Shown in pieces: positions 4,152 to 63,400 of a stretch of 64,000 nucleotides of DNA. Numbering within the stretch: position 1 is the stretch's first letter; each line of letters begins with the position of its first letter. The stretch is taken from the IMG/VR virus record IMGVR_UViG_3300005289_000004, positions 1 through 64,000 of that record; one strand, given 5' to 3'. This DNA comes from a virus. Position numbers and translations under genes: made by a program. The notes under the pieces are model-generated. The model was not told the DNA's origin, did not search any database, and was given only the letters and a program-made list of their open reading frames with translations.

Positions 4152-4862
4152 TTATAGTTTATAAAATGTGTCGGTTGTATTCTTGCCGGGTATCCCGTCA
4201 ACTTTTAAGCCGTGTTTAGCTTGAAATTCTTTAATAGCTTCTTTAGTTTTATCCCCATAGATTCCATCTGCTGTGATACCTAGCTTATACTGAATCATTT
4301 TCATTTCGTTGTAAGGGTGCAGTCTTGATAGCCAAGAATTAAGGAACTGTTTTTGATTACCTTTAGCTATAGAGTTATAAAAGTCTCTTCGCAGTTTGTT
4401 AAACTCTGTGTGTAGCTGTGAAGGATTGATACTGTTAGCTTGCGTGATGGTTTGGTTTCCTATCTGACCATCCACTTTAAGACTGCCTCCTAAGTTATTA
4501 ACAGCCTCTTGTAGGTATTTAGCTGATCTACCTGTTCCACTGTTAACTCCAAAATCATAGACTGTCTCTGCTAACTGTTGATCTTTTATTTGATCTAGCT
4601 TCAATACGTCCCAAAAGTTTATTTTATAGAACTGACTGATGAGTGCCATTATAACTGGATTAGACTTCACGTACTTATTTATGACAGATGCCTTTGTACC
4701 GTACTTAGCTTTAATCTCATCTATATACTTCCAACCGCCCCATGTAGGCCAGAACTTACGTGCTATTCCAAACGCAGTTTCACCACCTTTGTCATTTGGG
4801 TTGTTAGCCCAACCACCTTCCGCTATACCAGTTTTTGTTTCTGCTATTTTAAACTCTCCCAT
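4152..4862 (-). CDS. Endolysin, GH108 plus peptidoglycan-binding domains
   Basis: EGGWANNPNDKGGETAFGI; LKVDGQIG, TADGIYG, LKVDGIPG repeats; FLNSWLSRL. Confidence 0.9.
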   Translation of the reverse strand: MGEFKIAETKTGIAEGGWANNPNDKGGETAFGIARKFWPTWGGWKYIDEIKAKYGTKASVINKYVKSNPVIMALISQFYKINFWDVLKLDQIKDQQLAETVYDFGVNSGTGRSAKYLQEAVNNLGGSLKVDGQIGNQTITQANSINPSQLHTEFNKLRRDFYNSIAKGNQKQFLNSWLSRLHPYNEMKMIQYKLGITADGIYGDKTKEAIKEFQAKHGLKVDGIPGKNTTDTFYKL

Positions 4863-4889
4863 AACACAAAGGTAACCATACCTAACAGC

Positions 4890-5297
4890 TTATTTTCGTT
4901 TAGGTTCTTTAGCCCACTGTACTATCATATCGAGTGTACCCCATTTAATACCATTCTTTTCACACCACATAGCATAGGTGGTTTTAGATTTTTTGGATAG
5001 CTTTTTATTTGGTTCTTGGAACACTATGCGTATGTCAATTTTAGGGTGCTGTTCTTTTATTAGCAGGTGTTTTTTCCTATCCGTTGTAGAAAATAAACCT
5101 TTGAGTTCCAAATGTATCTGATTATCAAGTATATAATCGGGGAGGTACAAATGTGATGTTGACGGTTTAATGTATCTAATCTTCTTATCCTTTGGTTCGT
5201 ATTCAAACTTAATCTTTGCTGTCTCTAGGATAACTTGTCCACTCGCTTCAAACGATGACCTATGACCTGTTGCTTTACCTCCGAATCGTCTTCTCAT
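4890..5297 (-). CDS. T7 gp3-like endonuclease I (Holliday junction resolvase)
   Basis: RSSFE..FEYE..YLPDY..ELKG..DRKKHLLIKEQHP.IDIRIVF..TTYAMWCEKNG. Confidence 0.9.
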   Translation of the reverse strand: MRRRFGGKATGHRSSFEASGQVILETAKIKFEYEPKDKKIRYIKPSTSHLYLPDYILDNQIHLELKGLFSTTDRKKHLLIKEQHPKIDIRIVFQEPNKKLSKKSKTTYAMWCEKNGIKWGTLDMIVQWAKEPKRK

Positions 5298-33597: not shown

Positions 33598-36042
33598 CTA
33601 AGCGAGTCCGTTTTGTTGGGCTATACTTAGTGCCTCCTCCTCGGTCATCTCTCCACTATCTACTGCTGCCTGTAACTCTTGTCCCATTTGTTGTTGAGCT
33701 TGTTGCTGTTCTAACTGCTGTTGTTCTTGTTCTGCTTGCTGAGAACTGCTACTTGTCTTGACTGCTGCATTTTGAAGTGCCAGTGAAACTAACGGCTCGT
33801 ACATTGGTGGAATTGGCGTGCCTGTTTTAAATGATTCGGTTATCATGTCCATAGCTCCTTTTAACAATACCTGTATTTGGTCGTTATCTCCTTTGGCTTT
33901 TTCTTTCGCTTGTTCGTACTGTAGTTGGAGTTGAATGTTCTGTCCTCTGGCTTGTTCAGTTGCTTGGGCTGCTTGTGCGTTATATTCAGCAGCACTTCTC
34001 TGGGCTACGTCTGCATCTGCTACACGTTCTTTACGTCTTTTCTCAGTCAGGTAACTAAGCATTCTTTCAGCTAGCGCATATCCTGCATCCATTGTACGTC
34101 TTATACGCATTACGTCTTCCATGTATAGAGTTCCTGATGCTAAGGCTCTTTCTATGTTCTGTTCAAGATAAGCCCTTTCATCTGAACTGATGCCTAACTC
34201 ATATTTAAAATCGTAAATAGACTGTACTACTTCATCTTTAGCTTGGATAAGTTTAGCATTCTTTTCTCCTAGCAGTTTTAAGTACCCTTTATTTGGATTA
34301 CCGTATTTTAAAGCATCCCATATTCTAATACCCATTTGTCGGGTTAGCTTGGTTGTTGCTTTAACGTAAGCCATGTAATTAGACACCGTTGCTGTATTTG
34401 ATGCTTGTGCTTGTGACTGAGCGAACTTAAAACCAATTCTGGCTGCTGATGCTGAACCATCCCTAAACTCATTAATACCTAAAGTCTCCCTTACATTTTG
34501 TTGGGCTAGGTTATAAGCTACAATAAATCCGTTTATACTTGCACCGATGTCAACTGCTTCATTAACTACAGGGGGTTTGTAATCTATGTTACCTTCTTCA
34601 TCTTTACTGTTGTAATAAAGATCACCTGTTTGTCTTCGGATGGTTAGCACTTCTATCGGTTCTATCTCTCCATCTCCCAAGTCAATGTTCATCAAAGAGC
34701 GTATGTCAATAGAAAGTCCCGGAGGCGGTGTCTTGGCAATTACCTGTTTTATCTTTAACCAGTTCAAATCCATGATCTGAAAGTAATCCTTGACGTTCTC
34801 TATAGGACTAGGACTTAGCATACCTCCATGATTATCTACCATGTGGAATATGAAAGGACAGATCAACTCTTGCTTGTAATTACCATCTCTTAACTGGTTA
34901 GTTTGTTCAGCCCATTCAAGACAATAACAACCGCCACCCAAGAAATAACCTTCGTATGCTGTAAGTGGATAAACTCTTCCTGTATTCTTTCTGCCATCTG
35001 AGGATTTTCCTGTTGGGGTTAGCTTATCTGATACGTCAAACACTGATCTACCATATCTATCTTTACCCTCTGTGTATTCTAACACTTGGTTACAAGACCA
35101 CCAGACGTGCAATACCTCAACCATGAAGTTATCATACGGTCTTACGTCCCTAAACCGATAATCTTCTGTCCATCTTGGAAGTGAAGCGTTACCAAACCTA
35201 CCTGCAAACTTTTTAAGATAACCATGTAGTTCTTTCTCGTCTAATCCTTTAAGTGCAAACCTAGCTCTAAGTTTAGCTAGTGGCATTCTTATTAACCGTC
35301 CTGCATAACCGCCCTCTGGTATCTCACTGAAATCATCTGTAAAACAGTTTGAATAAATACAGTCTTCTCCTTGGATGTAGTCTACAACTTCCCGACCGTT
35401 ATTGTCTATGTATTCGTAAAGACCAAACAGATTGACTTGAAACTGATCGGTTAGGATTCTACGTTTAAGTTTTTCAATGTCTATGTCGTTAAAAGCAAAG
35501 GTTAAGGTTTCCTGTAGAAGTAACTCTTCTTTCTCTTTGTCGTTAATATCGTAGTACAGTTCTAAATCTTCCTTAGATTCTGGGGTATATTCTGATGGGT
35601 CTGTAAGAGGAACACCTGCTTCTTGTGATAGTTCACCTAACACCCCGCCGTACTCCATCCTAAATTGAGCGTCTGATTTACGTTTTTCTTTTCGTTCTTG
35701 TATGTGTGCTGATAATGCAGTTACTCTTGGGAACTCCTGTCTTGATTCCATGTAGCCGTCTACTACAATCTTTTCAAATTTCTTAGCGTATGCTCCCGGT
35801 TTAATCGATATATTTGTATAGGTTGACTTACCATCAATTTCCACCATATCCAAGATAGGCTTCATATCCTGCTTTCCCTCAGCGTAAGCCCTGTTGCTTG
35901 AAAATATCTTATTACGCTTTTCCCGGTAATCGTATGTGGATGCTAATATTGCCTTTGCTACAGAAGTACCAAATGCTTTGGTATCTTTATCTACCTTTGC
36001 CGACAATGGATTAGGAAAGTTGTCATTTATAATTAACTGCAT
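33598..36042 (-). CDS. Portal protein
   Basis: 814 aa after TerL; RAYAEGKQ, RETLGINEFRDG, Gln-rich C-terminus. Confidence 0.85.
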   Translation of the reverse strand: MQLIINDNFPNPLSAKVDKDTKAFGTSVAKAILASTYDYREKRNKIFSSNRAYAEGKQDMKPILDMVEIDGKSTYTNISIKPGAYAKKFEKIVVDGYMESRQEFPRVTALSAHIQERKEKRKSDAQFRMEYGGVLGELSQEAGVPLTDPSEYTPESKEDLELYYDINDKEKEELLLQETLTFAFNDIDIEKLKRRILTDQFQVNLFGLYEYIDNNGREVVDYIQGEDCIYSNCFTDDFSEIPEGGYAGRLIRMPLAKLRARFALKGLDEKELHGYLKKFAGRFGNASLPRWTEDYRFRDVRPYDNFMVEVLHVWWSCNQVLEYTEGKDRYGRSVFDVSDKLTPTGKSSDGRKNTGRVYPLTAYEGYFLGGGCYCLEWAEQTNQLRDGNYKQELICPFIFHMVDNHGGMLSPSPIENVKDYFQIMDLNWLKIKQVIAKTPPPGLSIDIRSLMNIDLGDGEIEPIEVLTIRRQTGDLYYNSKDEEGNIDYKPPVVNEAVDIGASINGFIVAYNLAQQNVRETLGINEFRDGSASAARIGFKFAQSQAQASNTATVSNYMAYVKATTKLTRQMGIRIWDALKYGNPNKGYLKLLGEKNAKLIQAKDEVVQSIYDFKYELGISSDERAYLEQNIERALASGTLYMEDVMRIRRTMDAGYALAERMLSYLTEKRRKERVADADVAQRSAAEYNAQAAQATEQARGQNIQLQLQYEQAKEKAKGDNDQIQVLLKGAMDMITESFKTGTPIPPMYEPLVSLALQNAAVKTSSSSQQAEQEQQQLEQQQAQQQMGQELQAAVDSGEMTEEEALSIAQQNGLA

Positions 36043-36113: not shown

Positions 36114-38168
36114 TTAGCGATAAGTTGTTATACGACCATGTTTGACAAATTTCTTTCCTTTTGGCTTATCTTTGACTTGTTTTAGGGGTTCTTTGATTGT
36201 TATGAGAGAATTTCCGTCACTTATGGCGGTATCATAATCGGTTCGGTCATTTACATCGAAGTCTAAACGGTCTTTAATTAGGCGTTTAAAGAATATTTTT
36301 TCCACATCATTGTAAGAACTCTCTACCATTTCTGTAAGATGTTCTTCTATGTACTCTTTGTTTTGTGGGGCTGCACCATACACCCAAGTCCCATCTGATC
36401 TTTGAGTTCCAAGTAAAAACTGTTCGTACCCATTTTCCTTAGCCCAATCAACCCAGTCAGTTGGCGAACGTTCTCCGAGCATTCTAACACCGTAAAACTT
36501 TAACCCCCAGTAGGTTTGCTTATGAAAATCTGGCTTATTATCCATACGACCAAGAAACATAGCTACAGGGCATCCGCTTTTTTCAGGGTCAATAATAGTG
36601 TACCTTCTTCTTATCATTATTGAGGCATCACTGCCCTTTTCTACAGTAGCATCGCTGTGTGCTATAGCATCAAGACCAGCACCGCCATAAGCAGTTCCTG
36701 TAGGTTTATACTTAGGTTTACCACCAATCTCACTTTTTTCAAACTGGTTAGGTTTATCGGGGAATTGTAGTATGTACCACAACCCTTTGGGGTCGTCTTC
36801 AAAAAATACAGTGCCATCAAACTTCTCCCTAAACCAACCTCTTCTTCCAAGTTCATCTTTTTCAGGGTCTTTACCTTCGGCTACCAATTGATCTTTTATA
36901 ACTTGTAATTGTGCTTCATGCCTTTTCCTGTCGAAGTGTATCTTCTTATTGGCACTCTCAAATACTTCTTTATCGTTCCAAGGATTCTGTCTTATCTCCT
37001 CTTCTAAGGCTTCAAGATCATTCTCCAATGCCTTTCTTGTATTAGCTTGATACTGTTTAGCACCTATAGTTGGGTCGAGGCAACCAATGGTTTCAAGATA
37101 TTTTGTCTGTTCAGGTGTTGGTGTGTCCCACACAGATTCCCCAAATGCGCCAATCCAACCGTCATACCCGAAATAAGCGGGCAACATTATACGATAAAGT
37201 CCTGTTTTTGTTTCCCCTAAGTAGTTAGCTTTAGATTGATCGCTTGACTGCCACGTAATTTGATACTCAGCTCCACCAGATTTTTTATCATTCACAGTGG
37301 TAGGCATAAATATCTTTCCAGTTATTCTAGCCCCTTTCTTGACGCACTTTGCAGCAATTGATAAGTATTTGTTGATCGGAGTTTCAGTTGGGAACTTACC
37401 CCCTTCATCGATAAGTAAGTAAGCAAGAGCATATCCATCATAAGAGTTAAGGTCTGTATTTTCCCAAGATAGTTCATTATTAAGACCCTCCCCTTTAGTG
37501 GCAGACTTTTTTGTTTTAGTTATTCTGTCTGCTTGCTTCTTTAAAGAGAGAACCTGTTTTGGTGCAGTGTTACCCTCTTGTATGGGTTTTAAAAACTCCG
37601 GTAAATTTCCCAAAGCCTTAACAGCATATTGAAAAGCCTTACCAGCATCCTTTCCCTTTTTAGATACAATACCTAAGTTAGCGTTTCTTAGGGTTAGCAT
37701 CTTTAATAGTAAGGCAGACATAATCATTGAGGTAGCCCCCAACCTACGGGCTTTTAGTAACGTATGCCCCAGACAAGTCTTTGTATTATCACATATTTCT
37801 AAAAACCTGTAATAGTAAAGGGACGTGTCTCTATATTCTGGGTACACTCCTTCGGGTAATAAAAACCAGTTGAGGAAAAAGTAAAAATAGCTGTTTATGT
37901 AGGTTGGTTCTCCGTTTACATATAACCACATTCCTGAGTTTAGTCTCTCTACCTCTTCTACCAAATAATTTACTTGATCGGGATTATCATTTAACCTATC
38001 TTCCCAACCGCCTGACCAATCAAACTTCTCGTAATCAACTACCCTTGACCATTTCTGTTTTGACTTAGGTATCCCATAGCCTCTAATATCTTTAAGAGGC
38101 GGTCTTTTAGGGAACTCGTATTTTAACCCTTCTACATAATATTCTCCATCTACCCAGATTCCTAACAT
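36114..38168 (-). CDS. terL: Terminase large subunit
   Basis: LKARRLGATS (Walker A), LLIDEGGK (Walker B), MPTT coupling motif, AGLD and YDTAISDG nuclease motifs. Confidence 0.92.
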   Translation of the reverse strand: MLGIWVDGEYYVEGLKYEFPKRPPLKDIRGYGIPKSKQKWSRVVDYEKFDWSGGWEDRLNDNPDQVNYLVEEVERLNSGMWLYVNGEPTYINSYFYFFLNWFLLPEGVYPEYRDTSLYYYRFLEICDNTKTCLGHTLLKARRLGATSMIMSALLLKMLTLRNANLGIVSKKGKDAGKAFQYAVKALGNLPEFLKPIQEGNTAPKQVLSLKKQADRITKTKKSATKGEGLNNELSWENTDLNSYDGYALAYLLIDEGGKFPTETPINKYLSIAAKCVKKGARITGKIFMPTTVNDKKSGGAEYQITWQSSDQSKANYLGETKTGLYRIMLPAYFGYDGWIGAFGESVWDTPTPEQTKYLETIGCLDPTIGAKQYQANTRKALENDLEALEEEIRQNPWNDKEVFESANKKIHFDRKRHEAQLQVIKDQLVAEGKDPEKDELGRRGWFREKFDGTVFFEDDPKGLWYILQFPDKPNQFEKSEIGGKPKYKPTGTAYGGAGLDAIAHSDATVEKGSDASIMIRRRYTIIDPEKSGCPVAMFLGRMDNKPDFHKQTYWGLKFYGVRMLGERSPTDWVDWAKENGYEQFLLGTQRSDGTWVYGAAPQNKEYIEEHLTEMVESSYNDVEKIFFKRLIKDRLDFDVNDRTDYDTAISDGNSLITIKEPLKQVKDKPKGKKFVKHGRITTYR

Positions 38169-38584
38169 TATATCTTACCCTCAAGTCTTTGCTTCTGTAA
38201 CTGCTCAAACGGATTAGAGGTTGGGTCAATTTTTATTTGTGATTTTTTAGTTTCACCCTTTTTTGCAATATCAGGCCTGAGTGCCTCGGCCATATCCGAT
38301 ACTTTTTTAAATGAATCTATCTTCTCCACCAGCTTCATTACACGGTCGAAGGTTTTATCTTGAGCATCGTTTGATAATATAGTCAACTTTTCTAACTCTC
38401 CGTTGGTAACATGATTAATATCGTCAGTTAGTTTTACAGACAGCTCGTCAAGCGAAATCAATAGTTGTTTGATACTACTAGTTTCGAAATTTACGAGGTA
38501 GTTATGCAATTCATACAAGTAAAGGTTTATCTCTTCACTTTCAGACACTAGGTCTAATCTCAATTCAAATTTCTCTTCGTTCAT
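38168..38584 (-). CDS. Putative terminase small subunit
   Basis: Helical 138 aa protein overlapping the TerL start. Confidence 0.45.
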   Translation of the reverse strand: MNEEKFELRLDLVSESEEINLYLYELHNYLVNFETSSIKQLLISLDELSVKLTDDINHVTNGELEKLTILSNDAQDKTFDRVMKLVEKIDSFKKVSDMAEALRPDIAKKGETKKSQIKIDPTSNPFEQLQKQRLEGKI

Positions 38585-38589
38585 AATTT

Positions 38590-39402
38590 TTATATTCTTT
38601 TCCAAACATACCCCCAAGCCTTGAGTGGCTCTTTGTCTTTCCTAAATTTGTCTATAACATCATCTAAATAGCACACTCCATGTTTACCCTTACCAAAATA
38701 TCTACATGCTTCTATTTTAGATGGGAAAGTTTTATACAGCTCACCTGTTAAATCGTAACATGCTATCTCTACACAATCTGGATGATTATTAAAAGTTTTT
38801 GCTTTCTGCTTTAATAGAATATCCTCCCGCTCTTTTTTCCAGTTGTGTGGTTCTCTGCTGAAAAATAAGTGTTTCCACCCTCTGGCTTCTCCCCTTAGAG
38901 TTCCGCTTACTCTGGCTTGGTTAGCGCCTAACATACGCCTAACTTCGCAAGCACTTTCAAACTCCCCCAAGATTTGATCTGTATTCATATCTATTGCATA
39001 TATCAAACCTCGAAATTTATGGTTGTCTTTACCCCAATTAGCTGGCCCTCTCCTTCCACCTAAACATAAGTTATAGTTAAAATCTGCGTCTACCCACGCT
39101 TGATCTACCATATTTTCCTCCGCTAAGTAGGCTTCATCTTCGGTATCAAATAATTGTAGGTTTTCTCTTTTAAAATTTTTATAACCGTATTTAAGGACAG
39201 CATTTATAAAACAGGTTTTACCTTTTCTTTCTATAATTCTAACTTTTTCTCTTATAGCATCTGCGTCTGAGGTTACTCCATCTCCAATATACTTGTCGTG
39301 TAATTTGTTTGAAGCATGTACTCCTACGTAAATTTTTCCGTTGATTAAATTTGTCGTTTTATAAAGTATGTTATATTTCTTATCTTGTTTTGATGCCCCC
39401 AT
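38590..39402 (-). mobile_element. GIY-YIG homing endonuclease (Seg-like)
   Basis: ILYKTTNLINGKIYVGVH..KYGYKNFKRE..YNLCLGG; NUMOD1 repeats. Confidence 0.9.
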
Positions 39403-39439
39403 ATAAATAAAAATGCACACTAGTGGTTTAAACTGTGTG

Positions 39440-39482: not shown

Positions 39483-39809
39483 CTACGCTTCTATAATCCC
39501 TAAAACGTTCTTCTCTTCAATCAGTATGTACTTCTCTCCGTTGTGTTCGATACGAGTTCCCCTGTTGTCAAATATTACAGTATCTCCTTCTACTACTTCT
39601 TCACAGTCTTTTCCTACTCTTAGTATGTCTAGTCGGTTTGTGGGGGTTAGCTTGTCTGTTTTAGCTACTAGGTTTTTTACCAGTTCGTGATCTTCATCAC
39701 CTATCCCTAGGATAAGCCCTGATGCTGATTCTACAGGTTTTACTTCTTCAAATATCTGTTTAGCTAGTATCCTATTCTTAATAGGTCTGAAATTTACTCG
39801 TTGTTCCAT
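39483..39809 (-). CDS. groES: GroES-like co-chaperonin
   Basis: FRPIKNRIL..SASGLIL..VGKDCEEVVEGDTVIF..GEKYILIEEKNVLGII. Confidence 0.85.
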   Translation of the reverse strand: MEQRVNFRPIKNRILAKQIFEEVKPVESASGLILGIGDEDHELVKNLVAKTDKLTPTNRLDILRVGKDCEEVVEGDTVIFDNRGTRIEHNGEKYILIEEKNVLGIIEA

Positions 39810-50873: not shown

Positions 50874-51803
50874 ATGACACGCTCAGAAGAAATTTTAAAT
50901 GGGTTCAACGAAACTCATAACTACAAATACACCTATCCTAATTACGGTGCTAAGAACCTTCAAGAAAAAGTTACAATCGTCTGTCCTGAACACGGAGAGT
51001 TTGTTAAGTTCGGATATTGCCATTTGAGAAGAAAGCAAGGATGCCCCAAGTGTTCGCACATTGGTTTGTCAAGGTATACAGAAGAGGAGTTCATGGATAG
51101 CCTAATTAAAACTCACGGTTATCCGTTACCTTTTGAAATTTTGTCTCCGTATGTGGGTAATAAGGATGACATTATGATTAAGGATAAGTATGGTATTTGC
51201 AAAACTAAACCCTATAACCTTACACGAACCTCTTATGGTTCCTTACGAACTGCCGTAGATAAAACTGCGTACATGATTGCCAAGTTTAATGAAAAACACA
51301 ACTTCAAATACACTTACGACAATTTTGTGTACAAAGGTAATAGGGTACTAGGTACAGTCACTTGCCCTGAGCATGGGGATTTTGAACAGTTGGTGGATGT
51401 ACACTTAATGGGTTGTGGATGCCCTAAATGTGCAGACTCTAATAAGGTAAGCGGCTACGGGAGAAATGATTACATAAGGGTTTGTAAAGAAAGGGAGGCA
51501 AGTTTATACATCATATGCTGTTACAGCGAGGATGAGTTCTTTGTTAAAGTGGGTATTACATCTACAGGAGTGAATAAAAGATTTAGAGACAGAAGTGCGA
51601 TGCCCTATGAATTTTCTTCATTATTTGAAACTATAGGTGATCCTGCTGAAATTTGGGATTTAGAACTGAGCTTGAAAAGAAAATATAAAGGCAATACATA
51701 CCTGCCACAAGTTTATTTCAAAGGACAGACAGAATGCTTTACTTTTGAGACAGCAGAAAAAATGATTGAAGAAATTAAAAATAAATTTGTAAATGCGACA
51801 TAG
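50874..51803 (+). mobile_element. Homing endonuclease with Zn-ribbon repeats and C-terminal GIY-YIG-like domain
   Basis: 2x CPEHG.F..H..GCPKC; SLYII..FVKVGIT..RF..E..G.TECF. Confidence 0.8.
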
Positions 51804-52064: not shown

Positions 52065-52993
52065 ATTACCTAGATACCCAGATTCAATATTACGAAAACG
52101 ATATACGCAAAACCAAGCCCATCGGAGTTTGTACACTAGGGCAGTTATTAGCCAGCATACGTAACCCTAAACAGGAAGTCTTAGAAAGGTTCAAGGAGAT
52201 TGCTAAAGCCAGTTCAGACGGAGATAAGAAGTTGAAAGACGAACTTAAATCTAAACTGTGGTATTTTACACCTTGTATATACAGCAAAGGAAACAACAGA
52301 ACCTACGAAGACATAGATCACTGGACAGCTGTTATGGTTTTAGATTTTGATAATCTGGAACAAGAGTTAGCGGTTGAATTAAGAGATTGGCTGTTTGAAA
52401 ATTATTCCTGTGTTGTAGCTAGTATGTTATCTAGTTCCCGTAAGGGTGTTAAATGTTTTGTGAGGATTCCAGAGGTTATCAGTGTGGAAGAGTTTAAACT
52501 GTATTTTTATGGGATAGCTTCTGAGATGCAGTATATTGTCGGGTTCGACCATACTACTCAAAATAGCGCATTGGCTTTCTACCTCACCTACGACTATGAC
52601 ATAAAGGTTCGGGAAGACGCAACTGAATGGACACAGACAGGTTATAAGCTAGACGAGTTTAAGCAGTGGGAAGGTGGAGAGATTATACCAATTGACGATG
52701 TAACAGAACAAGACAGGGAAGAAATAATAAAACAGCTAACCTGTATGTACGCAAATATAACTGATAATGGGCATATTCCAAATCGAAGCGCAGGACTCCT
52801 CATGGGGGGTTATATCGGTTCGGGGTACTTTACTTATGACGAAGCAGTTGACATACTAGATGAGCTAATTGACAATACAAGCTATCTACAAGCTAAACCA
52901 AGAACGTACAAGACCACTACACGACAGATGTTAAAAATTGGCAGTAAGTCCCCCCTATACCTAACCCGACACGAACACTTATATGAAGCCTAA
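52061..52993 (+). CDS. VirE-N/BT4734-like primase-polymerase family protein
   Basis: LKSKLWYFTP..VMVLDFDN..SSSRKGVKCFVRIP. Confidence 0.7.
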   Translation: MNYLDTQIQYYENDIRKTKPIGVCTLGQLLASIRNPKQEVLERFKEIAKASSDGDKKLKDELKSKLWYFTPCIYSKGNNRTYEDIDHWTAVMVLDFDNLEQELAVELRDWLFENYSCVVASMLSSSRKGVKCFVRIPEVISVEEFKLYFYGIASEMQYIVGFDHTTQNSALAFYLTYDYDIKVREDATEWTQTGYKLDEFKQWEGGEIIPIDDVTEQDREEIIKQLTCMYANITDNGHIPNRSAGLLMGGYIGSGYFTYDEAVDILDELIDNTSYLQAKPRTYKTTTRQMLKIGSKSPLYLTRHEHLYEA

Positions 52994-53351
52994 CAGATTA
53001 AAAGTATACAACAAATACGGAGGAAAGTGCGCTTACTGTGGTACAGATATACAGTTTAAAGATATGCAGGTTGACCACGTTATACCTCAATGGAGAGGTG
53101 GTAGCCATAGCAGAGCAATTCCTGTAGACGAAATACACTGTGAAGACAACTACATGCCTAGCTGTAGATCGTGTAACAACTACAAATCAGGGAATCCGTT
53201 AGAAGTTTTTAGAAAATCTATAGAGAACCAGATTGAAATATTAAGAAGAGACAGGCCAACTTTCAGACTAGCTGAGAGATATGGACTAATTGAATGCAAA
53301 CCTAAACCTGTAATATTTTACTATGAAGGATATACCACAACAATTCCTTAA
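52983..53351 (+). CDS. HNH endonuclease
   Basis: CAYCG..DHVIP..NYMPSCRSCNNYK. Confidence 0.9.
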   Translation: MKPNRLKVYNKYGGKCAYCGTDIQFKDMQVDHVIPQWRGGSHSRAIPVDEIHCEDNYMPSCRSCNNYKSGNPLEVFRKSIENQIEILRRDRPTFRLAERYGLIECKPKPVIFYYEGYTTTIP

Positions 53352-53396: not shown

Positions 53397-54948
53397 ATGG
53401 AACATAATTATCACGAACAGGAAAATGAATGGGTCAGAGATAGCTTCGACCTAGAGAAGTTAATAGAATTTACTTCAAAGCATAAAGTAGAGGTACTTAT
53501 GGGGGCTAGCTTTCAATATGAAGCCTACGTAGATTACAAAGAGGGGGACGGTTGTTATGGAACAGGGCTTACAATTCTAGGTGCAATAGTCACAGCTATA
53601 AAGACTTTTGAAAATAAATATCAGTAATTATTTGGAAGTTAAAAAATAAGTATATACCTTAGACTTATGAAGAGCAACACAAACGAAAAGGCACAGAGTG
53701 CTGAGGAAATACTTAAATCATTCATGGCTGAATGCGATACTTACTATGCAGACAGTAATGGTAATGGTTATGTAGACGCATCAAATCACTCTGTATTAAA
53801 AGCTATGGAGAACTACGCTCAATCCAGCATCTCCCAACTCGAAACCGACCTTGCTAAATCGCAGGAACGCATAGCACAACTGGAAGCTAAGTGCCAAAGG
53901 TATGAGGAGGCTTTTAATAGGATAAACAACATGAAGTCAGATAATAGTAGATCAACAGGTAATCGTTTTTTAATAGCAACCGAATTATCAGAACAAGCAC
54001 TAAAAACAACAAGAGATGAGCAAATTTAAAATAGTAACCCTAAAAGGCAATATTGAAAATATACCAGCTAAAAGTATAATTGATGCGGTGAATAGGTTCT
54101 ACAAAGACCCAAGCACATCTGAACAGACAATAAAATCAGTCACGTTAATTGAAGAGGCTAAAAAAGAAAAGTCCACTTTGATATTAAAATTCGGTGGTAT
54201 TAAGGGTGGAGATTATACAGGTAGCCCAGAAGCACTTAAATTAAGTGATGAGCTAAACACCATCTATGACGATTTGGAACGAAAGAGAAAAGAGTGTGAA
54301 ATTATAGACGTATATAACGGCAACTTTCTAATTTGGTGGGGACAAGTAAAGGCCTCTAAAGAACAAGCAAAAGAGTACATCATGAATTATGAAAGTAAAG
54401 TTTAACCCCAAAAGACTGAAAGATGAAAACAATTAGAAGTTACTTAGCAGAACTTACTCAGGCGTATAGCGGAGTAGATGCAATCACAAAGAACATACTT
54501 GATGTATGTGAAGAACAGGCAAAGTACGGTCACAAGTACCACAGGCACTCTGTACACAAATCCCGTACAGAAGAAGTAGTCAGTTATTTAGTTACAGTAG
54601 GTAAGCTGGACGTAGAGGTTTTACATAATAACGATAACTCAGACTGCGACCTAATTGAGGTGAGTTGGGACGGAGGTAGTGATGTATAACAGCGAGAAAC
54701 TTACAAAGATACTGTTGGAATGCTATATTGAAGCCTATAAATTTATTGGAGTAAACTTCCATGAGATAGATAAAAAGGAAGACTTCTTTCTTGACTACGA
54801 GTTGTGTGATTCAGAGCAAGAGAAGATCATCAACAGGGTTATTAACAAACACAAGCTAAAGTCTTACGAGAGACAGTGTATTAAAAATAGTTATTGGCTC
54901 GGCTGTTCACCAGCTAGCACTAAGATGACAAGAAATGAAAAAGAGTAG
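53397..54948 (+). other. Five small hypothetical CDSs (53397-53627, 53667-54029, 54016-54405, 54423-54689, ~54680-54948)
   Basis: Packed co-directional ORFs. Confidence 0.65.
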
Positions 54949-55390
54949 TAGAGATAGAAGAGTTCAACTAAGAGCTAAGAAACGTTATGGCTTAAAAGAT
55001 GGAGTCAAAATGTATAGGTATGGATATAAGAACAAAAAAGGTAATAAGTATGATGGGTCTAAAATTCCTAACCTGTTTATTATACTGCAAGAGCAGCAGA
55101 TGTGGGATGACATCGATAGGACGAGGATAGAAAATCCTTGGTTAGCACAGTTAGCAACAAAAGGAAGTGGGGTTATAGGTAAGTCCATGTTTACATCAAC
55201 TGTAGAAGAAGGGGTAAGTTGTTACAGAACCGTTTGGGAAGATGGCGATGATAATAAAGAAAATGGTTTGTATCGTTATTTTATCCCACACAGCGAACTG
55301 TATAGTAGAGAGTACATTGTAAGTTTAAGGGAAGAATTTAAAGATAAGGATTGTGAACCAGCGCCAGAACGTAGAAAATCACCAAGATGA
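54935..55390 (+). CDS. Degenerate terminase-ATPase-fragment-like protein
   Basis: Collinear motifs shared with TerL of this window: NxYDG, KGxxxxGK..TV, YxxxWxxxD, GLYR..P. Confidence 0.55.
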   Translation: MKKSSRDRRVQLRAKKRYGLKDGVKMYRYGYKNKKGNKYDGSKIPNLFIILQEQQMWDDIDRTRIENPWLAQLATKGSGVIGKSMFTSTVEEGVSCYRTVWEDGDDNKENGLYRYFIPHSELYSREYIVSLREEFKDKDCEPAPERRKSPR

Positions 55391-55854
55391 AAAAGAGTAA
55401 GCCACAACTTATAAACCAGTTTCACCACACTGAGAATATTGTAATCGATACGTGGGGAGGAGACTGTATAGCAGTACACGTAGGAGAAGACATCAAAGAA
55501 CTTTGCGATCATTTCTGTGATTTTTACAAGTTACCAGATAATTACCGTATTACTTCTCACACTGTGCAAGGTACGTTTGTGTGGGTTGAAGAGAAACATC
55601 ATCAGTCTTATAACCTTTTTGTGCAGTTTAATTTTTCATCAGATAGAGTTTTAATCCACGAGTGTCTACATATCGTCCATAGGATACTAAAGAATAAAGG
55701 TATGAAGCTAACTGATTCGTCTGAGGAGGCTTACTGTTATCTGCTGGACTATTTGTTCAATGAAGTACAAAGTATCGTTAAACGGGCTAAAATTGAGTTT
55801 AAAAAGTATAAGAAGAATGAGAGTACCAAGAAAGCTAAAGAAGAAAATACCTAA
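55387..55854 (+). CDS. HExxH zincin-like protein (paralogue of 45481-45843)
   Basis: LIHECLH..EEAYCYL. Confidence 0.7.
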   Translation: MKKSKPQLINQFHHTENIVIDTWGGDCIAVHVGEDIKELCDHFCDFYKLPDNYRITSHTVQGTFVWVEEKHHQSYNLFVQFNFSSDRVLIHECLHIVHRILKNKGMKLTDSSEEAYCYLLDYLFNEVQSIVKRAKIEFKKYKKNESTKKAKEENT

Positions 55855-60461: not shown

Positions 60462-63400
60462 ATGAGAGAATTAACAGTAACACAACAGTCTTTTAACAGT
60501 ATGTTATTAGGCTTGATACAATCAGGTGTAACATTTGAAGCTACTGAACAACCAAACGGTACAATATTAATCACATTCACAGGAGGGTATTAAAATGCAA
60601 GACAAATGGTTTTTATACGCACTCGTTGCTATGGGTGTTATAGCTTTAATAATATTATCCACACTTTAAATTATACAGTTATGAATACACTGGAATTTTT
60701 ATCTAAGGCAGAATCGATGTACTTAGACTACGTTAACAACTTCATTACACTTGAAGGATTTGCAAGTCACTACGCAATTAGTATCGGGTTAGCTATTGAA
60801 CTAATAAACTTTGGCAGAGTAGTATTTGAATCAAGTGAATACGAACGTAACACAGACCTTTAATTTTAAAACTATGAATACTCAAATTGAATTTACCCGC
60901 ATTAACAACGACACAAACGGCAATCCTAGGTATGTGTGTCACTTCTTAAATCTGTTAAATAGTAAAGAGCAGGTTGTAATAGCTGCTAAAGCTAAACCAT
61001 TTCAATCTATACCTGATATGTACAGGGAGGCAGTTAACAAAGCACGTGCAATAGGTGGTAAGAAATTCCACAACAAACAATACGGAGGTGGTATAGTATT
61101 TCAGTCTTACAGCATTCAACAAACAGAGAAAGATATTTTAAACCTTGTAAATAGCTAGAAAATGGAAGTAGTTTATATAGCAACCTACAAAAAAGATAAC
61201 GGATATATCAACACTGTACAGTTTGCAGACTTCAATGAAATGGTTGAATACCTAGAGACGTACAGAGACTGTAAAGTAATAATAACCACTATTTACATTT
61301 AACAATTACAAACATGAAAACTACAGCAATACAACAACAGTTAATTAACCATCTTGAAGCAGGATTTTTAGTTAGCAAAAAAGAACAAGATAATTTGTTC
61401 AAAATACTAAACGGCTCTAACACTGAACTAATAGACAAATTAAAAGAACTGTTAAATGAAAGTGAGGGTATTAGTTTATCTGATGAACATAGCAATCAGG
61501 GCAAAGACTGGCTTTTAAATCTTTGGAAGTCACTAACAGGTAAAGAGCGTAAAAACAATCCATTTGGGTACAGAGAGCAGGAAATATTGACAGATTTTAG
61601 TCACTGCGAATTGGCAGGTTATTATAACGGTGGTAATAGGTATATGAACTACTACATTCCTTTGTATGACGTTGTAAGTAATGACGGCAGTAGTTTTCAA
61701 TACTACATGCAAGGTGGTGAAATTAGTATAGTAGGGTAACATACCAAAACAAATAGAAAGTGTCTAAAATCGGCTAATAATAACCTTAAATCAAAGAATA
61801 TGAAAACTAAAGAACAAAAAATAGCAGAACTATATAGTAACATTGAATTGAACTATAAATTAATAGATGCTATTGTTGACTTGCAAGATGCGGGTTTTGG
61901 TAGTAGTGCATTATCACTAGCTCAAGACGAGGCAAATATGAGAGTTTCAATTAATCAAGAATGCTTAAAAGAACACGAATAACAATCCCTTCCCTGTCTA
62001 CAGATTTAAATAGCTTGTAACTATTCAGGGAACTAAACTTAAACAAAATAACATCATGTATTTAACAGAAAAACAAATCAATAGAGTTGCTATAGTGGGT
62101 AGCTTTATTATAATCTCTCTAGTAGTATACGCCTTAACAAAAGGTAATGTGTCTAATCTTTCAACTATAGGATATTAGGTTATGACAAACAGCCAATTTA
62201 CTATTACCTTAGCATTAGGTCTCTTGCTAGGTATTCTAATAACAGTATTAACTTATTCATTATTTAATGTATGAAAACATTAACATTAAACCCTAAAAAC
62301 TATAAGGTAGGTGATACCATTAAGTTTAGTACAATTACTAGGTCAGGAAAAGAGACTGTTAAACGGAAGATTGTTTCTATTGATAGCTTTGGTTTAGGTG
62401 TAAGATACAACGGTTGGAATCCCTATTACTTAAATAACCCGATGTTAGATAAAATTATTGAACATATAAAATTATAATTGTTATGAAAACAAACAACAAG
62501 AAAGAGGTGATAGCTACGGCCATAGCGTTTGTAGTTATCATGAACATGTGTATAGGGTTTACAATAGTAATAGCCCTAACTGATGTGTACACAGTAGAAT
62601 GCTGGTTAGCTTTGGTATTCAGTGTAGGTATTCTTATACTGGTAGGTCTTAAACTGGTAGCTGATATGGTAGAATATGAAATAAATAAACAACTTGAATT
62701 ATAATTGGTAAATTCAAAAGGAGAATTAACTATGAAAAAGAAAACAATTATACTACAGCTACTGACTGTAGATTTTGAGAATCCTAATTATGGCAGCAAT
62801 TGTGACTGTCCTGTAGGTAAAGCATGTGCTAGGCAATTAGGGCTTAACAGGGACGATATTATAGAGTGTGTTGATTGGGTTTATCTAGGTTACGATTTAG
62901 ACCGATACGACCACGAAGTTTACGGTTTAGATAAGTTTAATGCAGACGTTAAGCTAGCCGAACAAAAAGAACCAAACACAGTAATTAGAACACTTACCTT
63001 AACTAAAGCATAACATGTATTTACAAACAGAAATACCGACACGTGGTAGCTGGGTAGCTTGGTTAGCCACGATGATAGTTGGAGAGGTTAAAGTAGCTGA
63101 CCCAAAAGACAGGAATAGAATAGCCACAAGTATTAGCAGTGCTTTTCATAAAAAGAAGCTGGCTAGGTTTACTATTAAAATTAACAAAAACGACCGTTCA
63201 GAATTACATATTACGAGAATCGCATGAGACTGCCTGAAATGGTTGCATTAGCGCAACAAGGGGTAAAAATGACCCATAGATATTTTAGTGAAAATGAGTG
63301 GTTAGTTATGCAGGGCAACTTAGTTGTGTTTGAAGATGGAGTTAAGATATTCCTGTCTGAATGGATAACTAATAAAGAGTGGTTAAACGATGGTTGGTCT

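Follow-up and report, generated by a model that had tools for sequence, protein, structure and literature searches.

The uncultured phage examined in this study encodes, in addition to an intact large terminase (TerL), a small stand-alone protein that sequence comparison establishes as a genuine, diverged homologue of the TerL segment running from Walker B to motif III. We read its gene, the mini-terminase gene, as a selected, non-catalytic mimic of TerL that is carried as an accessory gene. It lies in the window, by which we mean the whole 64-kb stretch of DNA that was analysed, part of a complete virus record of 75,640 bp with direct terminal repeats. The features concerned are:

36114..38168, minus strand: full-length TerL, 684 aa, intact; matches phrog_6681 (E 7e-86); 95 homologues
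37170..37466, minus strand: the TerL segment copied by the mini-gene, residues 235-333, with Walker B LLIDE (nt 37404-37418) and motif III PTT
54935..55390, plus strand: mini-terminase gene, 151 aa; one of eight stand-alone proteins of 70-154 aa; without a Pfam or PHROG family

The coordinates, length and sequence strings given for the mini-terminase in a first-pass annotation were all correct. Its ATG is 14 nt inside the end of the upstream ORF (54679..54948), and its TGA shares the sequence ATGA with the ATG of the next ORF (55387), which confirms the overlapping start and stop codons described in that annotation. The mini-terminase and the next gene share their first 13 nt, ATGAAAAAGAGTA (54935-54947 and 55387-55399, plus strand), and both proteins start with M-K-K-S. 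The distance to terL is 16.8 kb and the two genes are on opposite strands, in agreement with the 17 kb noted before. The mini-terminase belongs to the early/replication arm and lies on the strand of the DNA polymerase, with the virion and packaging genes on the other, minus strand; this plus-strand arm extends from ~44 kb and contains a family A DNA polymerase, HNH endonucleases and many small ORFs. The HNH endonuclease genes are found at 50874-51803 and 52983-53351.

On the packaging side of the genome, a portal-sized ORF (33598..36042) without a family match adjoins TerL, and a phage-encoded GroES (Cpn10, E 4e-7; 39483-39809, minus strand) lies a few genes upstream of the packaging genes. 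The GroES, TerL and portal genes are also neighbours in Cellulophaga phage phi18:3 (Pachyviridae). A 276-aa ORF (38590-39420, minus strand), which overlaps the putative small-terminase ORF (38168-38617) at the latter's start, shows a NUMOD1 match below the Pfam cut-off and a GIY-YIG-looking N-terminus, and is probably a free-standing homing endonuclease adjoining the packaging genes. In TerL itself, Walker B LLIDE corresponds to residues 251-255 and motif III P-T-T to residues 289-291. Its Walker A is deviant, reading K-A-R-R-L-G-A-T at residues 139-146 (37731-37754, minus strand), which aligns to SRQLGKT of T4 gp17 and has Ala in place of the lysine of the classical GK(S/T). At least six TerL homologues of ~1030 aa (P0034, P0057, P0061, P0062, P0074 and P0107) carry an intein directly after the Walker B D-E, with the homing-endonuclease domains PF05203, PF05204 and PF14528. 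The intein site corresponds approximately to residue 255/256 of the window TerL (nt ~37401-37406); the position behind the intein is occupied by Cys or Ser in these homologues and by Gly in the window TerL. Another homologue, P0010, has an insert near Walker A instead, and the window TerL is intein-free. A link between the mini-gene and the intein site past Walker B was considered and is not supported, since the N-terminal boundary of the small family does not coincide with that site.

Relatives of the mini-terminase are very few. Searched exhaustively with phmmer, a set of 1.8 billion representative proteins yielded six (P0002-P0007, E 1.6e-10 to 6.7e-4), all of them short (70-154 aa) and each with a Met start close to a shared Y-D-G motif; one of the six is encoded on a 78-kb contig. 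A seventh relative, P0011 (107 aa), is encoded in another complete phage genome. The small family is thereby defined as P0001-P0007 plus P0011, that is, eight members among ~15 billion proteins. The members show, in order, the signature Y-D-G, E-x-Q-M-W, G-K-x4-S-T-V, W and G-L-Y-R-x-F-I-P, and the family is supported by the alignments, the phmmer search and the clade in the tree. Two of the eight, P0005 and P0006, are C-terminally short and without the last strand, which may reflect decay or wrong gene ends.

Pairwise BLASTP between the mini-terminase and TerL is marginal (26 bits, E 6e-4, 24% identity, 26% gaps), and BLAST of the mini-terminase ORF against all ORFs of the window did not recover the TerL match. 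By hhalign, the small-family profile aligned with a 30-sequence TerL alignment at 98.6% probability and E 1.4e-15 over 89 columns (TerL 235-333). Both the profile similarity to the TerL ATPase domain expected in the first-pass annotation and the collinearity with the phage's own TerL (~37465-37175) proposed there are thus borne out, the homologous residues 235-333 falling at nt 37170-37466. Against the whole 75.6-kb genome in six frames, the small-family profile matched only the mini-terminase ORF (6.6e-42) and TerL (2.1e-5; 37173-37448), and reciprocally the TerL profile matched only TerL and the mini-terminase ORF (54956-55297, E 8e-11). The small-family HMM matches 97 of 99 TerLs at E < 1e-3, at the same place each time, and the only three longer proteins matched by the family profile are all PHROG 6681 TerLs. 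Three family members were also compared by tblastn with 50,697 INPHARED phage records, in which no stand-alone copy was detected: with the window ORF, 8 of the 14 records matched were TerL genes of Cellulophaga or Flavobacterium phages; with P0011, every match listed (77 rows) was on TerL genes of such phages; and with P0002 there was no match. By their sequence, these TerL matches place the phage among Flavobacteriia-type phages. Searches of Pfam, PHROGs and a PDB sequence profile gave nothing significant for the mini-terminase ORF or its family. Taken together, the profile, reciprocal genome-wide, HMM and tblastn results establish the homology. Chance similarity is ruled out by the hhalign result and the reciprocal profile searches. 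A split TerL with a missing partner half is also ruled out, since TerL is intact and the TerL profile finds no further TerL-like piece in the genome; the same search found no match to the N-terminal half of TerL in the mini-terminase ORF or elsewhere in the genome.

The alignment divides the mini-protein into the following parts:

54956..55045, plus strand: basic N-terminal extension, aa 8-37, weakly alignable to TerL ~217-242
55046..55297, plus strand: TerL-homologous core, aa 38-121, ~TerL 243-333, with the hhalign (98.6%) and TerL profile matches
55073..55093, plus strand: degenerate Walker B, LFIILQE, with Asp replaced by Gln and the catalytic Glu kept, followed by the family motif QMWDDI
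55178..55204, plus strand: remnant of the motif III (coupling) strand, GK-x4-STV, aligned to TerL G284 and T291
55265..55288, plus strand: last shared strand, GLYRYFIP, in which R114 aligns with the TerL-invariant R326

By analogy with T4 gp17, the part of TerL that is covered would comprise the Walker B strand, a helix, the motif III strand, another helix and the next strand. The alignment of the N-terminal extension to TerL ~217 has low posterior values in hmmsearch, and most other family members are without this extension; the window copy has lineage-specific basic tails at both its N- and C-termini in the family alignment. The Walker A/P-loop, the lid and the nuclease domain are all absent from the mini-protein, which aligns only to TerL ~217/235-333. 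The ORF stops 30 residues past the last shared strand and hence does not include the C-terminal RNase H-like nuclease domain. The Walker B Asp (TerL D254) is 100% conserved in the 30 TerLs and is Q, E, Y or F in the small family (Q52 in the window copy), and TerL K258, three residues past the Glu, is replaced by M or L. The earlier statements that the Walker B DE is degenerate (Q52, E53) and that Walker A and the nuclease domain are absent therefore agree with the alignment and its extent.

Other positions of the segment are strictly or nearly strictly retained. The Glu following the Walker B Asp (TerL E255, window E53), the motif III Thr (T89, aligned with T291) and the Asp of Y-D-G (TerL D244) are each present in seven of the eight small proteins; the Gly before motif III (G82, aligned with G284), the adjoining K83 and the Trp equivalent to TerL W305 are present in all eight; and the Arg of G-L-Y-R (R114, aligned with R326) is found in all six members reaching that point. 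S-T-V is preserved as well. The TerL-invariant residues D244, E255, G284, T291, W305 and R326 are thus preserved despite an overall identity to TerL of ~27%, and at the former ATP site the family has acquired a conserved motif of its own, E-x-Q-M-W-D-D-I, where TerL has DExGK. The alignments show that the mini-protein descends from the middle third of the ATPase domain of a phrog_6681-type TerL and is non-catalytic. Having neither the P-loop nor the Walker B Asp, it can neither bind nor hydrolyse ATP as TerL does.

Structure prediction gave no self-sufficient fold. AlphaFold2 on the mini-protein alone reached a pLDDT of 36; with a 38-row alignment including TerLs it reached a pLDDT of 62 and a pTM of 0.27, with helices where those of TerL are and no strands. 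The ESM Atlas model has a pLDDT of 0.35, and its neighbours are mostly unnamed proteins of 160-190 aa. Foldseek of the alignment-based, low-confidence AlphaFold2 model against the PDB returned no match, as is expected from a poor model, and a co-fold prediction of the mini-protein with full TerL scored 0.00, which we weigh neither for nor against binding. Cut out of the interior of a Rossmann-like sheet, such a segment may be unable to fold by itself; the lack of a self-sufficient fold in these models fits a protein that would require a partner, though it does not count as evidence for one.

The distribution of the gene gives information about its history. Searches of IMG/VR and JGI contigs identified one further carrier phage only, IMG/VR UViG_3300026487_000004, a complete genome of 75,583 bp with terminal repeats. 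This phage is a distant relative in which only ~11 ORFs of the window are detectable. Between the two phages the mini-gene is 39.5% identical and TerL 22.7%; over the same aligned segment the mini-genes share 37% identity versus 29.7% for the TerLs. A conserved gene neighbourhood is ruled out, since the flanks of the mini-gene in the two carriers are unrelated. In the second carrier, the ORF after the mini-gene (4472-5005 of locus L001, plus strand) overlaps it by ~120 nt in another frame and is Cys/His-rich with a short zf-BED-type match; it is perhaps an HNH-like nuclease. A 110-aa Phage_TreK protein of the window (60826-61158, plus strand; E 9e-24) is 58% identical to an ORF of the second carrier, and its gene is the sole early-arm gene common to both phages besides the mini-terminase. 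The closest IMG/VR relative of the window phage (TerL 52% identical, 96% complete) has TerL only and no mini-gene, and the same is true of Cellulophaga phage phi18:3.

A maximum-likelihood tree was built from the shared segment. Seven of the small proteins cluster in it (86/87), and in the best tree a weakly supported branch (62/50) separates all eight from the rest. They fall inside the core-lineage TerL radiation, on branches that are longer than those of the TerLs themselves. In both carriers the mini-protein and the TerL of the same phage are not sisters, which rules out a recent duplication of the phage's own terL. Judged from this tree, the small family seems to form a single clade without a sister relationship to the TerL of either phage. 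The clade, the retained residues, the long branches and the patchy carriage together point to one old origin followed by constraint and fast evolution. Such a pattern in the sequences points to an accessory gene engaged in conflict rather than to gene debris. Frameshifted homologues, which the first-pass annotation had named as a mark of debris, were not what we found: the frames are intact in eight lineages and the gene is conserved across distant phages. What stands of its overall reading is that an intact accessory gene among early genes encodes, on its own, a degenerate copy of the Walker B-to-motif III segment that has no catalytic capacity; the two functions it suggested, titration of terminase sensors and dominant-negative inhibition of rival packaging, are hypotheses that we weigh below.

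It is known that TerL is a major trigger of bacterial immunity (PMC13601566), and that Avs2 and Upx sense its ATPase domain (Evans et al. 2026, PMC13601566). In the case of Avs2, the sensor wraps around the complete ATPase domain, touches the bound ATP and buries ~2800 square angstroms, whereas Upx is predicted to thread unfolded strands of the ATPase core via beta-augmentation; one of the Upx proteins tested is a homologue of Hydrobacter penzbergensis, a member of the Bacteroidota (PMC13601566). Stand-alone proteins resembling the TerL ATPase domain have been described, namely T4 vs.8, Ksap1 and Ksap2, and these trigger Avs2 rather than inhibit it, although an anti-defence role of stand-alone TerL-like proteins is raised by the authors as one possibility (PMC13601566). 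Like the mini-protein, T4 vs.8 is an extra, lineage-restricted phage protein derived from the TerL ATPase domain; it represents the whole domain with conserved Walker A and B and activates EcAvs2 (PMC13601566), whereas the mini-protein represents only a third of the domain, lacks the P-loop, stems from a TerL lineage unrelated to that of vs.8 and has lost the Walker B Asp. Ksap1 and Ksap2 are likewise small phage proteins resembling the TerL ATPase core, which are predicted to sit in the terminase-sensor pocket and act as triggers (PMC11564622; PMC13601566). Their likeness to TerL is structural, in a 4-6-stranded sheet, sequence homology being reported for vs.8 only (PMC13601566). The mini-protein differs from them in that it can be recognised as a homologue from its sequence, corresponds to a smaller piece and has no confidently predicted fold. 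Among its closest known counterparts is the TerL of Pachyviridae-like Flavobacteriia phages (PHROG 6681; phi18:3 gp098), with which it shares the Walker B strand, motif III, the following strand and the segment's invariant residues (D, E, G, T, W and R); unlike that TerL, it retains ~90 of ~684 residues and is encoded by an optional gene in the early arm. We found no paper describing P-loop-less, sub-domain copies of TerL. The small family itself is new and unnamed; the published stand-alone TerL paralogues are whole domains.

Since the mini-protein is no enzyme and yet keeps the active-site face of TerL, it most likely acts by being bound in TerL's place. We tentatively infer that it mimics the TerL ATPase core and serves as a decoy for a host terminase sensor. 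Judging only from the position of its gene, the mini-protein would be expressed early and thus made before TerL; it would then occupy something that recognises the TerL ATPase core, a host terminase sensor being the likeliest target, and with the sensor occupied, abortive-infection immunity would be blunted. An Upx-like sensor, which reads unfolded core strands by beta-augmentation, might fit the mini-protein better than an Avs pocket would; a P-loop-less third of the domain should be a poor mimic for Avs, because Avs2 envelops the whole domain together with its ATP. Several observations argue against a decoy. The published TerL-like stand-alone proteins, which are whole-domain with Walker A and B, trigger Avs2 (PMC13601566). 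The anti-Avs proteins known so far are unrelated to TerL, two family members (P0005 and P0006) are short, and the family, with eight sequences, is very rare.

The retained residues may also be viewed from the packaging motor. The fragment could dock on TerL, the portal or TerS and either poison co-infecting, related phages as a dominant negative or restrain the phage's own TerL until heads are ready, an explanation that we take as the main rival to the decoy and regard as somewhat unlikely. The equivalents of the ATP-site residues E255, T291 and R326 are kept, for which a protein lacking a P-loop has no catalytic need, and the family's own motif occupies the face against which the P-loop half would be packed, which is compatible with docking onto the P-loop half of a TerL. 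Moreover, the mini-protein of the second phage resembles core-lineage TerLs and not the very divergent TerL of its own phage, which would fit poisoning others while sparing self. However, the window phage's own TerL is also of the core lineage, so that self-poisoning would have to be avoided, and the mini-gene, placed in the early arm at a distance from the packaging genes, does not vary together with the TerL of its own phage. A precedent is offered by satellites, which are known to block helper-phage packaging via small proteins such as SaPI Ppi acting on TerS. The mini-protein resembles Ppi as a small protein that could block terminase by binding, although Ppi-type proteins are satellite-encoded, target TerS and are not derived from TerL.

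The motif E-x-Q-M-W-D-D-I in place of the DExGK of TerL could alternatively mean that the beta-alpha-beta scaffold of TerL was recruited for an unrelated job, for instance to bind nucleic acid or some protein of the host, perhaps in oligomeric form. The lineage-specific basic tails of the window copy and the mostly unnamed proteins of 160-190 aa among its ESM Atlas neighbours would agree with such a new function, but a mere scaffold would not need the catalytic-site residues of TerL, and Pfam, PHROGs and the PDB profile show no similarity to any other family; we consider this recruitment unlikely.

A more particular form of the decoy is that the mini-protein acts as an unfolded strand bait, showing the core beta-strands of TerL to an Upx-like sensor and jamming it without activating it. 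Walker B, motif III and the next strand would be presented, and with the remaining strands lacking, the sensor would not be switched on. We think it quite improbable that the protein works in this way; if it did, it would be the first anti-defence protein that mimics the unfolded state of a conserved viral protein.

Very unlikely, finally, is a slowly decaying, functionless remnant of a partial terL duplication, perhaps moved along with homing-endonuclease or intein traffic: homing endonuclease genes do lie nearby and adjoin terL, the Walker B site is an intein hot spot in this TerL family, two family members are C-terminally short and structure prediction is poor, but eight lineages hold intact frames at ~37-46% identity, the family preserves TerL-invariant residues and has acquired a motif of its own, only ~11 ORFs, this one included, are still recognisable between two very distant phages, between which it is more conserved than TerL, and within an operon it shares overlapping start and stop codons with the adjacent genes.

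The interpretation of the gene as a selected TerL mimic bears on how phages and hosts contend over the terminase, which is among the main viral proteins recognised by bacterial immune sensors (Avs1-3, Upx). The extra copies of the terminase ATPase published so far, T4 vs.8 and Ksap1/2, are whole-domain look-alikes, and a gene under selection that has retained nothing but the core strands, without a P-loop, limits the possible roles of such copies, since a protein which, from its residues, cannot be an enzyme would have to act by being bound. The mini-gene is thus a small, clonable reagent for asking whether terminase fragments block or trigger sensors, and it also bears on whether Upx reads unfolded core strands and on whether phages poison each other's packaging motors.
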